A stretch of DNA of 64,000 nucleotides from Eubacteriales bacterium (GTDB lineage Bacteria; Bacillota; Clostridia; Oscillospirales; CAG-272): contig JAZOLZ010000007.1 of the NCBI GenBank assembly GCA_045653505.1, positions 4,447-68,446 on the forward strand. Reading direction: 5' to 3'. The position numbers were made by a program, and so were the translations under genes. Below are positions 19,729 to 38,164 of this stretch, piece after piece; the stretch's first letter is position 1; each line of letters opens with the position of its first letter. Under the pieces are notes generated by a model. It made no database searches and was not told where the DNA came from. It saw only the letters and a program-made list of their open reading frames with translations.

Positions 19729-19805
19729 ATTTTTTCCTTTTGAGAATATTTTAACAACAGATATTTAAAGCCCGCCTCCTTAGGCAGGCTCTAAAAGATG
19801 AGATA

Positions 19806-20126
19806 GTAGTTATCTCAAGTTTTCGCTTCTATTATTAATTTTGAGATAAAACCGTCGTTATTTGACCACTGGCCGTAGTTATCTCAAGTTTTCGCTTTTG
19901 ATGTTAATTTTGAGATAAAATCGGTGATGCTCACACCGCTAGGCGTAGTTACCCTATCGGCTTTCGGTTTTAGTTTTAATTTCGAGATAAATGTTTCGTT
20001 CTTCAACCCGTCAGCCGTAGTTATCTCAAGTTTTCGCTTTTGATGTTAATTTTGAGATAAAATCGGTGATACTCACACCGCTAGGCGTAGTTACCTACGT
20101 CAAGGTGTGAGAGCGCCGATTTTATC
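19806..20126. repeat. tandem array of about 4.6 hairpin-containing units of ~70 nt
   Basis: Units start with GTAGTTA at 19806, 19875, 19945, 20017 and 20087. Units 2 and 4 differ at one base. Each carries tatctcaa...ttgagata inverted repeats. Confidence 0.85.
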
Positions 20127-20132
20127 CAAAAT

Positions 20133-20858
20133 TTAGTTATCCCAGTTGTGGTAAACAGCGTTGACGTCGTCATCCTCATTAAATTTATCAAGCATCTTTT
20201 CCATGTTGTCAATGTCGTCCTGATTTTCAAGGGTGACGTAGGTGGTAGGAACCTTTGCTACGTCTGCGGTGTCTATTTTGTAGCCGAGAGATATTATGGC
20301 ATCACGAACTGCGTCAAGATCGGCAGGGGCGGTGTAAATGTTGTACTCACCCTCATCCGACTGAATGTCCTCAGCACCGCACTCAAGTGCGTCCTCCATA
20401 ATCTTATCCTCGTCTATCTCCTCATCCTCATCGATGATGGTGATAACACCCTTTTCCTCAAACATAAAACTTACACAGCCGCTCTGACCCATATTGCCAC
20501 CGTACTTATTGAACCAAGCGCGCACGTTACCTGCAGTACGGTTACGGTTGTCAGTCGAGGTCTCAACTATAACGGCAACGCCTGAGGGACCGTAGCCCTC
20601 GTAAACTATTTCCTCATAGTTTATATCGCTGTTATCTGTGAACTTTTTGATAGTACGCTGAATGTTATCGTTAGGAACGTTGTTGGCCTTTGCCTTTGCA
20701 ATAAGGTCACGGAGTTTGTTATTGTTGTTGGGGTCCGGGCCGCCCGCCTTGATGGCAATAGCCATCTCCTTACCTATTTTGGTGAAGATTTTTGCCTTTG
20801 CGGCATCGGCTTTTTCCTTTTTATGCTTAATGTTGTTCCATTTTGAATGTCCTGACAT
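20133..20858 (-). CDS. yebC: YebC/PmpR-family transcriptional regulator
   Basis: MSGHSKWNNIKHKKEKADAAKAKIFTK is the invariant YebC start. Confidence 0.95.
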   Translation of the reverse strand: MSGHSKWNNIKHKKEKADAAKAKIFTKIGKEMAIAIKAGGPDPNNNNKLRDLIAKAKANNVPNDNIQRTIKKFTDNSDINYEEIVYEGYGPSGVAVIVETSTDNRNRTAGNVRAWFNKYGGNMGQSGCVSFMFEEKGVITIIDEDEEIDEDKIMEDALECGAEDIQSDEGEYNIYTAPADLDAVRDAIISLGYKIDTADVAKVPTTYVTLENQDDIDNMEKMLDKFNEDDDVNAVYHNWDN

Positions 20859-35686: not shown

Positions 35687-35762
35687 CGGGATGTAGCGCA
35701 GTTGGTAGCGCGCCTGCTTTGGGAGCAGGATGTCGCAGGTTCAAGTCCTGTCATTCCGACCA
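35687..35762 (+). tRNA. tRNA-Pro (anticodon TGG)
   Basis: CGGGATG acceptor pairs with CATTCCG. D arm GCGCAGTTGGTAGCGC. Anticodon arm CCTGC-TTTGGGA-GCAGG. T arm GCAGG-TTCAAGT-CCTGT. Encoded ACCA end. Confidence 0.9.
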
Positions 35763-35767
35763 AAAAA

Positions 35768-35805
35768 CCAAAGGGAGTAGATTTTTTACTCCCTTTGGTT
35801 TTTTT
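35768..35805 (+). terminator. rho-independent terminator of tRNA-Pro
   Basis: ccaaagggagta-gattttt-tactccctttgg is followed by ttttttt. Confidence 0.8.
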
Positions 35806-35990
35806 GGTTTGTATGACAAGGGTGCAGAACCTGCCTCCTCGTCAGTATGCAGTATTGAACTTTGTAAATCTCGGCTGACGAGGATTAAATTTACTCCTTG
35901 TTTTGCTTGCAAAATTGATGCGTATGTCGCATCAAGGGTAAATTGGGGGCGTTGGTGCTTTGATATACTGTGCCAACGCCTGTTCAACTT

Positions 35991-36012
35991 TCCTGTCATT
36001 CCGACCAAAAAA
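35991..36012 (+). repeat. direct copy of the last 16 nt of tRNA-Pro plus the A tract
   Basis: tcctgtcattccgaccaaaaaa is identical to 35746-35767. Weaker similarity extends into the T loop (ctgttcaac vs aggttcaag). Confidence 0.75.
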
Positions 36013-36046: not shown

Positions 36047-36075
36047 TTGTATTTTTCTCCAAAACACTGTATAAT
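36047..36075 (+). promoter_or_regulatory. candidate sigma-A promoter of the PH-like/SPFH operon
   Basis: TTGTAT, a 17-nt spacer, then TATAAT. Confidence 0.45.
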
Positions 36076-36257
36076 AGTGTTGCCAAACTAACTTAATAAT
36101 TGTGATTTGTGGTATTTTTCTATCTTCAGGGATAACTATACCCTTTTTTAGCCACACTTATCTTATGAATTTGATAAAATGCAAATTCCATCTAGTAAGT
36201 GTGGTAATACCCATTTCACATAGAGTTAGTTTGGCGACTATCGGAGTTTGCGTTTTG
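36076..36257 (+). promoter_or_regulatory. structured 5' leader (nested long-range helices), class unknown
   Basis: 12-bp perfect pairing gccaaactaact (36082-36093) with agttagtttggc (36224-36235). It encloses a 9-bp pairing ccacactta (36152-36160) with taagtgtgg (36196-36204). Confidence 0.45.
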
Positions 36258-36290
36258 GTGCGGTTGCTTCGGTAGCCGCACTTTTTGATT
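36258..36290 (+). terminator. intrinsic terminator inside the leader, just upstream of the RBS
   Basis: gtgcggttgc-ttcg-gtagccgcac followed by tttttgatttt. GGAGG lies at 36293 and the ATG at 36304. Confidence 0.6.
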
Positions 36291-36303
36291 TTGGAGGTAA
36301 AAT

Positions 36304-36876
36304 ATGGAGGATTTAAAATTAGCATCCAACGAGGGCATTATTATTCAAAGCACAGACGTTTTATCAGGCACTCGCTTAATGGACGGTTATACCGATGACC
36401 TTATTCTAACTAACTTAAATATCATCTTAATAAAAAGAGGTGTATTTGGAAAGAAAAAAAGTGAGCAAAGATTCCCTGTTTCTGACATCAAAATAATAAA
36501 CAACAAGCCCCAAGTAATGATGAGCAAAATGAATTCTCGCAACGTCGATCAACTGCAAATAGATTTCAAAAACGGAATCCAACATTTTGAGTTTTCCAAT
36601 AAAAACAAAAAAGAAATTGCAAAGTGGATAAAATCTATTCACGAATTATTGAATTGCAAAGAAGACGGCACAACTATGGACGTAGTAACCGATTCATTAA
36701 AAAAGGGTGTAGATTCAATCAAACAAATTTTTGGCATAAAAACAGATACAAAAAACACCAACGATCCACAAACTCAATTTTTAACTGCAAGATGTCACGG
36801 ATGTAAAGCTCCTTTAAAAGGAACAAGAAAACAAATAGTTAGGTGTTCATACTGTGATACCGAGCACACATTTTAA
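36304..36876 (+). CDS. PH/GRAM-like domain protein with C-terminal zinc ribbon
   Basis: The pattern DDLILTNLNIILIKRG...FPVSDIKII...LQIDFKNGIQHFEFSNKNKKEIAKWIKSI resembles bacterial PH-like domains (inference). The C-terminus CHGCKAPL...CSYCDTEH is a zinc ribbon. Confidence 0.55.
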   Translation: MEDLKLASNEGIIIQSTDVLSGTRLMDGYTDDLILTNLNIILIKRGVFGKKKSEQRFPVSDIKIINNKPQVMMSKMNSRNVDQLQIDFKNGIQHFEFSNKNKKEIAKWIKSIHELLNCKEDGTTMDVVTDSLKKGVDSIKQIFGIKTDTKNTNDPQTQFLTARCHGCKAPLKGTRKQIVRCSYCDTEHTF

Positions 36877-36887
36877 CGGAGGTTACT

Positions 36888-38012
36888 ATGGGACTAATCA
36901 AATCATTTGCGGGTGCAATAAGCGGCACCTTAGCCGATCAATGGAAAGACATAATAACTTCAGATGTCTTTGATACCCACACTTTAATTTCTCCTGGAAT
37001 TAGAAAAACGACCGATAACGACAGAGGAAATGATTATAAAGGTTCTTCCGGCGTAATCTCTAATGGATCAAAAATTTTTGTTCCGGAAAACACCGCCGCA
37101 TTTATATTTAGCCAATCAGGTATAGAAGAAATCATCACTGAACCAGGCGGATACATTTATAAAAATGGAGACTCAAGCATCTTTAATGGTGATGGCTTTA
37201 AAAATTCAATTTTTAAGGAATTAGGAAAGAGATTTCAGTACGGCGGTATCACGGATACCAAAAAAGAAATTTGCTTTGTTAATCTAAGGGAAATAAGGGA
37301 TATAAAGTTTGGAACAAGAGGTGCGCAATTATATAACGATATGTTTTACAAATGTGACCTTGAATTATTTGCATTTGGATCATTTACTGTAAAAGTTATT
37401 GACCCCGTAAAGGTCGTTAAAAATTTCGTGCCCGCTGGCACAAACCATTATTCATTTGATGATCCATCTGCAAGAGAGCAGCTAATATCGGATTTTTTAC
37501 AATCATTTATTGTTGCCATTAATTCTCTTTCAAGCGAGTACAGAATCTCTCAAATCCCTTCACAATCAAATGCACTATCAATACAAATTTCCAAAGACTC
37601 TTTAAACGCAGGGTCGTGGGCAAATAGATTTGGCTTCGAAGTCGTTAAGGTGTCGATTGAAAATATAGAATTATCTGATGAATCTAAGGAATTAGTTAAA
37701 AAATATAATGAAAACAGAATGAACTTATCTGCTTATGAAGGCATTTCACAAAAAGCCTCTAATATTGCAGCTCAACAAAAAATTGCAGAAGGTGTAAAAA
37801 ATAATGGCTTTGGTGATATCGGGGGAATGATGTTTGCCACAGGAATGATTCAAGGACTAAATCCCCAAAATGCATCACAAATTGATCAAGGTAAAAAAAT
37901 GTCTTTCAATGAACAAATTGAAACACTAACAAAATTGAAGGGGTTATTAGATGCAGGTATTTTAACTCAAGAAGAATTTGATACTAAGAAAAAAGAAATT
38001 ATGGGGTTATAA
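36888..38012 (+). CDS. SPFH-like (YdjI / virion-core-protein-like) protein with C-terminal SHOCT domain
   Basis: MGLIKSFAGAISGTLADQWKDIITS parallels MGIIKATFQAIGGALADQWQEVIE of 17062-18321. The tail IETLTKLKGLLDAGILTQEEFDTKKKEIMGL is a SHOCT motif. The gene starts 12 nt after the upstream stop. Confidence 0.7.
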   Translation: MGLIKSFAGAISGTLADQWKDIITSDVFDTHTLISPGIRKTTDNDRGNDYKGSSGVISNGSKIFVPENTAAFIFSQSGIEEIITEPGGYIYKNGDSSIFNGDGFKNSIFKELGKRFQYGGITDTKKEICFVNLREIRDIKFGTRGAQLYNDMFYKCDLELFAFGSFTVKVIDPVKVVKNFVPAGTNHYSFDDPSAREQLISDFLQSFIVAINSLSSEYRISQIPSQSNALSIQISKDSLNAGSWANRFGFEVVKVSIENIELSDESKELVKKYNENRMNLSAYEGISQKASNIAAQQKIAEGVKNNGFGDIGGMMFATGMIQGLNPQNASQIDQGKKMSFNEQIETLTKLKGLLDAGILTQEEFDTKKKEIMGL

Positions 38013-38122: not shown

Positions 38123-38164
38123 ACCAAAAAAACAAAAGGAGTAGATTTTTTTACCTTGTTTTTT
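38123..38164 (+). repeat. degenerate copy of the tRNA-Pro 3' tip plus its terminator
   Basis: accaaaaaaacaaaaggagtagatttttttaccttgtttttt versus 35760-35805 accaaaaaaccaaagggagtagattttttactccctttggttttttt. Confidence 0.55.

Follow-up and report, generated by a model that had tools for sequence, protein, structure and literature searches.

A widespread, previously undescribed leader RNA family of gut Clostridia with two mutually exclusive pairings of a conserved linker

The element analyzed here occupies positions 36047-36303 of a 64,000-nucleotide (nt) window, that is, the entire stretch of DNA examined, from contig JAZOLZ010000007.1 of an uncultured Clostridia genome (Eubacteriales bacterium, assembly GCA_045653505.1); all coordinates below are those of the window. 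The element is located on the forward strand between a tRNA-Pro gene and a two-gene operon, and comprises a promoter, a long branched hairpin (36079-36238), an 18-nt linker and an intrinsic terminator, which is followed by the ribosome-binding site (RBS) of the first gene of the operon (Table 1). In a preliminary description, this stretch had been portrayed as a structured leader with a terminator placed between the promoter and the RBS. The same layout is retained in the homologous copies detected in other genomes, with the next gene usually starting ~28 nt past the beginning of the U-tract, and the stretch is a genuine copy of a widespread, undescribed family of ~215-nt leaders of gut Clostridia.

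All coordinates of the preliminary description agree with the sequence, and the helices that it delineated turned out to be parts of longer ones. The outermost helix, P1, given as 12 perfect base pairs (bp) between 36082-36093 and 36224-36235, grows to 16 bp, and the perfect 9-bp helix between 36152-36160 and 36196-36204 belongs to an 11-bp helix, P3. The terminator is present, with 11 pairs, a UUCG loop and the tract TTTT-GA-TTTT, and so is the promoter (TTGTAT, 17 nt, TATAAT). Its -10 element is perfect and occupies the same position in nearly all other copies; the -35 element of the window copy is weak, with three matches to the six-base consensus, and the promoter is thus missed by a consensus scan. 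The folding energy of the window leader on the forward strand is -80.7 kcal/mol, compared to -47.5 +/- 4.3 kcal/mol for shuffled sequences (z = -7.8; none of 200 dinucleotide shuffles is as good) and to only -60.1 kcal/mol for the opposite strand. Among the individual elements, the terminator has a predicted energy of -18.4 kcal/mol and the apical hairpin P4, which is paired in 92% of the cases across the copies, -4.9 kcal/mol.

Table 1. Features of the leader and of the adjacent genes in the window
Feature	Coordinates	Strand	Remarks
tRNA-Pro(UGG), its terminator, 185-nt spacer and 22-nt repeat	35687..36012	+	Context ahead of the leader
Sigma-A-type promoter: TTGTAT (36047-36052), 17-nt spacer, TATAAT (36070-36075)	36047..36075	+	Identified from sequence
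P1, 5' arm, UGCCAAACUAACUU	36079..36094	+	Pairs with 36223-36238; at or beside the predicted 5' end of the transcript
Asymmetric bulge with AAUA motif between P1 and P2, conserved	36095..36100	+	A27, T28 and A29 near-invariant
P2, 5' strand, variable sequence	36101..36116	+	Partner strand in the minimum-free-energy fold, 36206-36220
Side hairpin P2a, GGGA...UAUACCC, with a U-run behind it	36128..36150	+	Creates a three-way junction; 36128-36131 pairs with 36141-36144
P3, apical hairpin P4 and A-rich loop	36151..36205	+	P3, 36151-36161 with 36195-36205; P4, 36167-36173 with 36182-36188
Apical segment, AAAAUGCAAAUUCC	36176..36189	+	Complementary to the linker at 36243-36256
3' strands of P2 and P1	36206..36238	+	
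Linker (putative switching segment), UAUCGGAGUUUGCGUUUU, 18 nt	36239..36256	+	Most conserved stretch of the family
Intrinsic terminator	36257..36292	+	11-bp stem (36257-36282), cUUCGg loop, then U-tract
RBS GGAGG (36293-36297), start codon ATG (36304) and gene 1 (to 36876)	36293..36876	+	
Gene 1	36304-36876	+	190 aa; bPH_1, E = 0.008, below the cut-off; C-terminal CxxC...CxxC zinc ribbon
Gene 2	36888..38012	+	374 aa; Band_7_1, E = 2.5e-13, and SHOCT, E = 7.6e-9 (SPFH/Band-7 with a SHOCT tail)

To characterize the family, about 50 copies were fetched and aligned, and a larger alignment (A3) of 150 distinct copies was constructed; altogether, ~180 copies were gathered from uncultured gut and rumen Clostridia. 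In the ~50 aligned copies, the promoter is strong, usually with a TTGACA-like -35 element, a 17-nt spacer and TGnTATAAT, and ends 5-6 nt before P1. The P1 helix has 14-17 bp and a conserved sequence (UGCCAAAC-N-AAC...), of which variants such as the GCUACAC and GUCACAC classes occur. By contrast, P2 and P3 (the latter 10-15 bp) are perfectly paired, with sequences that are unrelated between copies; in the other copies, the place of the window P2 is taken by an equivalent helix whose sequence is unrelated. Among the conserved elements are the apical hairpin GAAUUUG-RUAAAAAYG-CAAAUUC and, almost without variation, the UAUACCC strand of P2a and the U-run behind it. The most conserved parts of the family are the linker (AAUCGGAGUUUGCGUUUUU, with the core AUCGGAGUUUGCGUUUU) and the terminator, which is present in every copy. 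A shorter subclass, of ~165-190 nt, lacks P2a. The near-invariant AnUAUACCC of P2a (36134-36144 in the window) reads GGGTATAnT on the opposite strand, which is a good -10 box with no -35 element; it could represent an antisense promoter or merely a constraint on the RNA.

The family is broadly distributed, and all its carriers are uncultured genomes. A BLAST search with 264 nt of the window against 61 related genomes yielded matches in 31 of these, with up to 9 per genome, at 70-77% identity across the promoter-to-terminator unit and 80-93% identity over the last 70 nt. The exact pattern of the linker and terminator was found in more than 120 further contigs, all from metagenome-assembled genomes of gut or rumen Clostridia that are labelled Oscillospiraceae, Acutalibacteraceae, Christensenellaceae, Faecousia, Fimenecus and others. 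A covariance model that was built from 49 copies and quickly calibrated, such that its E-values are rough, recovered the family from 55 of the 151 genomes of the order. Among the high-quality genomes alone, the share is 47 of 127; at higher ranks, 39 of the 97 genera and 20 of the 30 families are represented. A single genome holds as many as 8-9 copies. One match (L171) was detected among viral contigs and one weak match in an uncultured faecal phage from a phage collection; a plasmid collection yielded no match to the leader. The source genome of the window, which is 83% complete, carries three copies: the window copy, a second one on contig 23 (L002), and a diverged, short one on contig 1 (G000:C1:7755-7915, minus strand). 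The third copy precedes a lipoprotein gene. Promoter, P1, UAUACC hairpin and terminator are all retained in it, as is the complementarity between linker and apical segment, in a different sequence. In several contigs, leaders occur in tandem, a few hundred nt apart (L061 2148-2708, L079 3691-4233, L166 1933-2567, G049:C8:61290-61678 and G130:C1:38001-38360), in each case with a tiny open reading frame (ORF) or none behind the individual leader; these are arrays of leader cassettes.

The reality of the helices is attested by compensatory substitutions. The preliminary description had allowed that the helices might prove unconserved upstream of homologous operons, which is contradicted by the compensatory changes in the 150 copies: P1 is paired in 96.9% of the alignment cells, with 10 of the 14 pairs changed on both sides, and the terminator in 99.0%, with 7 of the 10 pairs so changed. 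The linker displays two complementarities, one with the apical segment (GGAGUUUGCG with UGCAAAUUCC) and one with the terminator (AAUCGGAGU with ACUUCGGUU, the antiterminator). The linker-apical pairing is realized in 97.4% of the cells, and 4 of its 10 pairs changed on both sides, counts that are partly constrained by selection inasmuch as ~100 of the 150 copies were picked by a pattern that fixes the linker; for the antiterminator, the respective values are 97.1% and 5 of 9. In the window, the linker-apical duplex joins 36243-36256 with 36176-36189 (14 bp, -15.9 kcal/mol). The suggestion of the preliminary description that an antiterminator could form from 36236-36257 was borne out: 36238-36247 pairs with 36266-36275 (10 bp, -11.0 kcal/mol), where the 3' partner consists of the terminator loop and the start of the 3' arm of the terminator, and this pairing covaries across the family. 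The antiterminator is the minimum-free-energy structure predicted by RNAfold in a sizeable share of the copies listed.

Shuffle controls did not reach the observed value in any of 500 trials on any measure except for 'further pair types' (39 of 500; 49-copy set), and the 49-copy set agrees with the larger alignment on covariation. Because the copies are related rather than independent, the shuffle controls overstate the significance; stronger controls are provided by sliding the partners by 1-3 columns, whereupon pairing falls to 23-52%, and by the short subclass. The latter has other linkers (GAAG, GAGC and GUGCG among them), each matched by a corresponding change in the apical partner, with a mean duplex energy of -15.3 kcal/mol for cognate and -13.6 kcal/mol for non-cognate combinations (permutation p = 0.0002). 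This subclass is free of the linker-selection bias because its members were found by the covariance-model search. In the third copy of the source genome, GUGGGUG pairs with CACCCAC at the same two places. The most telling position is alignment column 302, which covaries with two others: in the antiterminator, with column 262 (AU 59, UA 46, UG 14, GC 6), and in the terminator, with column 293 (GU 44, UA 44, AU 26, GC 15). One base is held complementary to two alternative partners, which is a signature of alternative pairing. Since the two pairings of the linker overlap at GGAGU, they are mutually exclusive, and two exclusive, covarying pairings of one linker constitute the logic of a transcription attenuator.

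Several lines of evidence bear on the strand and the gene on which the element acts. In 152 of the 157 copies, the hairpin domain folds more stably as the sense strand than as the antisense strand, by 10.5 kcal/mol on average; G-U pairs number 5.8 per copy in the sense fold versus 1.5 in the antisense fold, and mismatches in P1 are overwhelmingly G-U, not A-C. Selection acts on a single strand, the transcribed one, and in a single orientation. Taken alone, this asymmetry is compatible with single-stranded DNA; together with the fixed promoter ahead and the terminator and RBS behind, it points to a transcript as opposed to a double-stranded DNA site. A same-strand ORF with an RBS is found behind the leader in almost every copy. 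Counted from the first U of the U-tract, the median distance to the start codon is 28 nt, and 97 of 135 copies have it within 40 nt. In the window, the 10 nt (36283-36292) between the terminator stem and the RBS leave no room for a further promoter, so the gene would be expressed solely via read-through.

This arrangement has to be weighed against the alternative that the unit is a free-standing small RNA (sRNA) gene, which would encode a ~215-nt trans-acting RNA, with the downstream gene expressed by incidental read-through or from elsewhere. Indeed, the unit comes with a conserved promoter of its own and ends in a strong terminator, and the apical loop, which is conserved, would be exposed in the terminated RNA and could pair with other RNAs; furthermore, the ORF begins more than 80 nt past the U-tract in 21 of 135 copies, and in the second copy of the source genome, the next ORF lies ~150 nt behind the terminator, with a TATAAT-like box in between. 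However, in most copies the RBS lies directly behind the U-tract, which would leave the gene without a promoter of its own, and a conserved, covarying antiterminator would be purposeless in a plain sRNA gene. We regard this alternative as improbable.

The leader is, in our view, probably a cis-acting ~215-nt 5' RNA that gates transcription into the next gene through alternative pairing. According to this model, transcription would start at the conserved promoter, a few bases ahead of P1, and the RNA would fold as a branched hairpin that consists of P1, the AAUA bulge, P2, the three-way junction with P2a, P3 and P4; the conserved linker core would emerge next, followed by the terminator that ends ~10 nt before the RBS. 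In the OFF state, the linker would pair with the 3' half and the A-rich loop of the apical hairpin, ousting the weak P4; the terminator would then be free to form, transcription would stop, and an RNA of ~215 nt would be released. In the ON state, the linker would engage the terminator loop together with the beginning of the 3' arm, and the antiterminator would be complete before the rest of the terminator is transcribed, allowing the RNA polymerase to enter the gene. We infer from these complementarities that the pairings set the choice between termination and read-through and that some factor biases this choice; candidates for such a factor are small ligands, RNA-binding proteins, a second RNA, transcription kinetics and temperature.

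A number of considerations weigh against this model. The transcription start, the terminated product and the read-through are all inferred from the genomic sequence. The putatively controlled genes share no common pathway, unlike those under classical metabolite riboswitches, and a P1 of such unusual length (14-17 bp) and conserved sequence is more typical of a protein-binding or recombination site than of the P1 of a riboswitch. The terminator and the linker-apical duplex win at equilibrium, so that the ON state must be kinetic or factor-dependent. The geometry is uncertain as well: the linker is located at the base, and its partner at the tip, of a rod of ~35 bp, such that pairing within one molecule would need a sharp fold-back at the AAUA bulge or at the three-way junction, and otherwise would occur between molecules. 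Finally, one natural copy has an inverted interior, as discussed below.

The difficulty of a base-to-tip pairing of 14-17 bp on a 35-bp rod within one molecule, which we derive from the predicted fold, is what motivates a version of attenuation driven by RNA, in which the linker-apical pairing would form between molecules, and accumulated terminated leaders or an internal antisense RNA would bind the leaders still being transcribed and thereby force termination. The cognate specificity of the pairing would fit such self-recognition, and the -10 box on the strand opposite P2a would fit an antisense transcript. However, this box lacks a -35 element in the alignment, and TATAAT-like hexamers are common in AT-rich DNA; we rate the chance that attenuation works in this manner as slim. 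Attenuation driven by antisense RNA is known from the plasmids pT181 and pIP501, where it serves replication control, and from pAMbeta1; in these systems, as in the present family, RNA-RNA pairing in alternative folds of a leader decides on a terminator located just before an RBS, and the association with mobile DNA is common to both. In contrast to these plasmid systems, the leaders of the family are chromosomal or reside on islands, precede many unrelated genes, and contain the pairing partner in the same transcript.

Another alternative dispenses with a signal altogether: the rod would serve as a 5' stabilizer or insulator, and the terminator as a fixed, leaky attenuator that keeps the expression of acquired genes low. 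A 5'-terminal helix is a known mRNA-stabilizing feature, the terminator is thermodynamically dominant, and the diversity of the downstream genes gives no hint of a common signal, all of which would agree with such a constitutive leader. A fixed attenuator, however, has no need of a linker with two covarying, exclusive partners or of a three-way junction that is conserved, and this explanation appears quite unlikely to us.

The inverted copy mentioned above brings up a further possibility, namely, that the P1 arms are inverted repeats recognized by a site-specific recombinase, with the promoter outside, and that the orientation of the interior sets phase-variable expression. The common orientation would supply the sequence that sequesters the linker (OFF), and the flipped one would supply a near-copy of the linker that yields the antiterminator (ON). 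Inverted repeats do flank the segment between the promoter and the gene, given that the P1 arms are 15-16 nt long and 130 nt apart. In a prophage-like contig (L171/L178), the segment between the P1 arms is exactly inverted, with the promoter, linker and terminator unchanged; the inversion reduces the linker-interior duplex from -18.5 to -8.6 kcal/mol, so that the linker loses its 15-bp partner and the ON state is predicted. The conservation of the P1 sequence among the copies would be expected of a shared recombinase site, many copies lie at contig ends, and surface proteins, which along with restriction-modification genes are classical phase-variable products, are common among the putatively controlled genes. 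The inverted copy (L171 3655-3880, minus strand; the same in L178 and L195-L201) is located directly downstream of a gene for a 529-aa large serine recombinase, which looks like a prophage integrase.

A precedent for a switch of this type is cwpV of Clostridioides difficile, in which 21-bp inverted repeats enclose a 195-bp interior behind an upstream promoter, with a terminator that depends on orientation, and both orientations are found in nearly every strain (PMC2784873). The family resembles cwpV in having a promoter before a repeat-flanked segment of 130-195 bp and termination within the leader, and the gene downstream of the cwpV switch encodes a surface protein (PMC2784873). The cwpV terminator, however, arises at the junction between the repeat and the segment (PMC2784873), whereas that of the family is constant and lies outside the segment. 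Unlike cwpV, the family shows a single orientation in 167 of the 168 copies in which both parts are detectable and no variation within lineages, and its interior displays the strand asymmetry of an RNA. A metagenome-wide scan for the inverted form returned the same contig family alone. The prophage copy is inverted in all 7 samples, which are near-identical (one differs by a single base); at two other loci, all 15 detectable copies in 16 places are unflipped, and no mixture was observed among the 7, 10 and 6 samples of three loci. The inverted copy folds with -44.2 kcal/mol as found and with -53.0 kcal/mol when turned back, and thus looks like a recent accident. The strong sense-strand enrichment in G-U pairs and the maintenance of the variable P2 and P3 bespeak single-strand selection, which an inverted-repeat site does not require, and the contig ends are explained equally well by the 70-nt multi-copy tail that is 80-93% identical. 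Taken together, these observations make an invertible switch very unlikely.

The genes that follow the leader are highly diverse and comprise surface, membrane and mobile-element cargo. Among the first ORFs (n = 141), 67 Pfam families are represented, the commonest of which are BspA-type LRR (12), zinc ribbons (9), LRR_8 (8), Flg_new repeats (4), AMP-binding (3) and SPFH (2); HTH, MazE, dockerin and a phage Ltp-type lipoprotein occur as well, and many of the other products are lipoproteins or small membrane proteins. The association with PH-like/SPFH operons envisaged in the preliminary description therefore does not hold for the family, because the leader precedes at least 67 different protein families. 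The lack of a common pathway argues against a metabolite riboswitch and in favor of a signal of a general kind, of a partner that is either a protein or an RNA, or of the absence of any signal. The two genes of the window were also considered as a potential defense system, an idea that was dropped given that PADLOC yielded no meaningful match for them; the exact protein encoded by gene 1 has no record in other assemblies.

With respect to known RNA classes, an Rfam scan, which the preliminary description had recommended, places the leader outside every Rfam family at both gathering and permissive thresholds. When the window was compared to Rfam 15 at gathering thresholds, tRNA-Pro alone passed and nothing was found on the leader; under permissive settings, the best matches on the leader were AniS (21 bits, gathering threshold 50) and L20_leader (19 bits, gathering threshold 58.7), both on the terminator, and 13 other copies produced no Rfam match on the leader at E <= 1. 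Likeness to retron RNAs, integron attC sites, T-boxes and K-turns was considered and dropped, the defining features being missing. Specifically, the leader has no T-box match in Rfam, and the antiterminator interior lacks the conserved UGGN; as for retrons, no RVT family is present among the 25 commonest of the 67 downstream-gene families, and the window genes are PH-like and SPFH. The leader is not a T-box, nor, judging by the window genes and those 25 families, a retron RNA, nor, on present evidence, a cwpV-type switch.

The family displays generic hallmarks of riboswitches, in that a covarying, structured domain lies upstream of a gene and the terminator and antiterminator are mutually exclusive; a shared metabolic or transport theme is not apparent among the 67 Pfam families of the 141 first ORFs. 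Given such incoherence of the genes, a riboswitch that senses a small molecule in the strict sense seems less likely here than for typical riboswitches. In several respects, the family is similar to the terminator/antiterminator leaders of Firmicutes, such as riboswitches, PyrR sites and T-boxes: these also lie between the promoter and the RBS, combine a sensor-like structured domain with an intrinsic terminator, occur in several copies per genome, and contain a conserved segment for which the sensor domain and part of the terminator are alternative potential partners. Unlike those leaders, the family has a long, sequence-conserved outer helix and includes the promoter in the conserved unit, and it serves heterogeneous accessory, surface and mobile-element genes, not one pathway. 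In the ZTP/pfl and cobalamin (L5-L13) riboswitches, a long-range pseudoknot or kissing loop sets the expression platform. The shared feature is the pairing of a distal loop, over a spacer of variable length, with a 3' segment that overlaps the control of the terminator; unlike in those riboswitches, the putative pairing in the family is far longer, at 14-17 bp, and would connect opposite ends, tip and base, of a predicted rod of ~35 bp. By these comparisons, the leaders constitute an RNA family absent from Rfam, with an unusual, cargo-centred set of genes and a conserved, built-in promoter.

The genomic neighborhoods of the leader suggest an association with mobile elements. Among the 138 evaluable copies, that is, loci with at least 600 nt of upstream sequence, 20 have a tRNA or tmRNA gene within 600 nt upstream, in 19 of the 20 cases in the same orientation, which is far above the chance expectation of ~2% that we estimate from the density of tRNA genes; tRNA and tmRNA genes are classical sites of island integration. 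Examples include tmRNA genes upstream of the leader in L008, L110 and L123 and tRNA genes in L015, L101 and L165. In the window, the 3' end of the tRNA gene is repeated exactly over 22 nt (35746-35767 and 35991-36012). A third, partial repeat at 38123-38151, behind the operon, closes an islet of 2.1 kb. The second copy of the source genome (G000:C23, ~19760-20390) has the same spacer, with 76% identity, and the same arrangement behind tRNA-Leu; the duplicated part of the tRNA 3' end is longer there, with ~130 nt including the terminator. These repeats look like accreted remnants of small att-flanked elements at tRNA integration sites. When 60 genomes of the genus were screened for an empty site (SDR gene and tRNA-Pro versus the downstream transporter gene), the flanks proved unlinked in every relative, which leaves the borders of an insertion undefined.

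The leaders are exchangeable: the 98-aa protein encoded downstream of the inverted copy is found with a leader and, behind an ordinary promoter, without it (L197, L202, L203). A polymorphism within a human-gut lineage (L181-L183 versus L179 and L180, positions ~60-700) consists of an extra block upstream of the resident promoter-leader-gene unit; the block brings along a promoter, a leader that differs from the resident one, and codons 1-39 of the same gene, and both of its junctions show CAAAA microhomology. That the two leaders have an identical tail suggests swapping or duplication by recombination. Contigs often start or end in or beside the leader, sometimes at the same base across samples (L185, L186, L204, G027:C72:1-255, G026:C32); L185 and L186 begin 239 nt ahead of the gene. 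Such breaks are most simply explained by the conserved multi-copy tail, and heterogeneity of orientation would look alike.

Beyond the attenuator model, we tentatively consider a broader interpretation, possible but on balance doubtful, under which the family is a portable module of promoter and attenuator that places horizontally acquired cargo of gut Clostridia, namely, genes of surface and membrane proteins and those carried by phages and islands, under one common signal. Within such a scheme, the signal might be a signalling molecule read by a new class of riboswitch, might act through a dedicated RNA-binding antiterminator, or might be the terminated RNA of the leader itself, and it would switch numerous unrelated accessory genes simultaneously. 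The family offers test material of its own, in the form of ~180 natural variants, a natural inverted 'mutant', and the short subclass that lacks one branch. If the attenuator model is correct, hundreds of species of uncultured gut and rumen Clostridia would control a shifting set of surface, membrane and mobile-element genes by a single RNA device that is unlisted in the databases, and identification of the signal would establish a regulon of a new type, built around acquired genes as opposed to a pathway. The family then would provide a handle on surface variation in gut bacteria as well as a compact and self-contained promoter-attenuator part for synthetic biology in Firmicutes.

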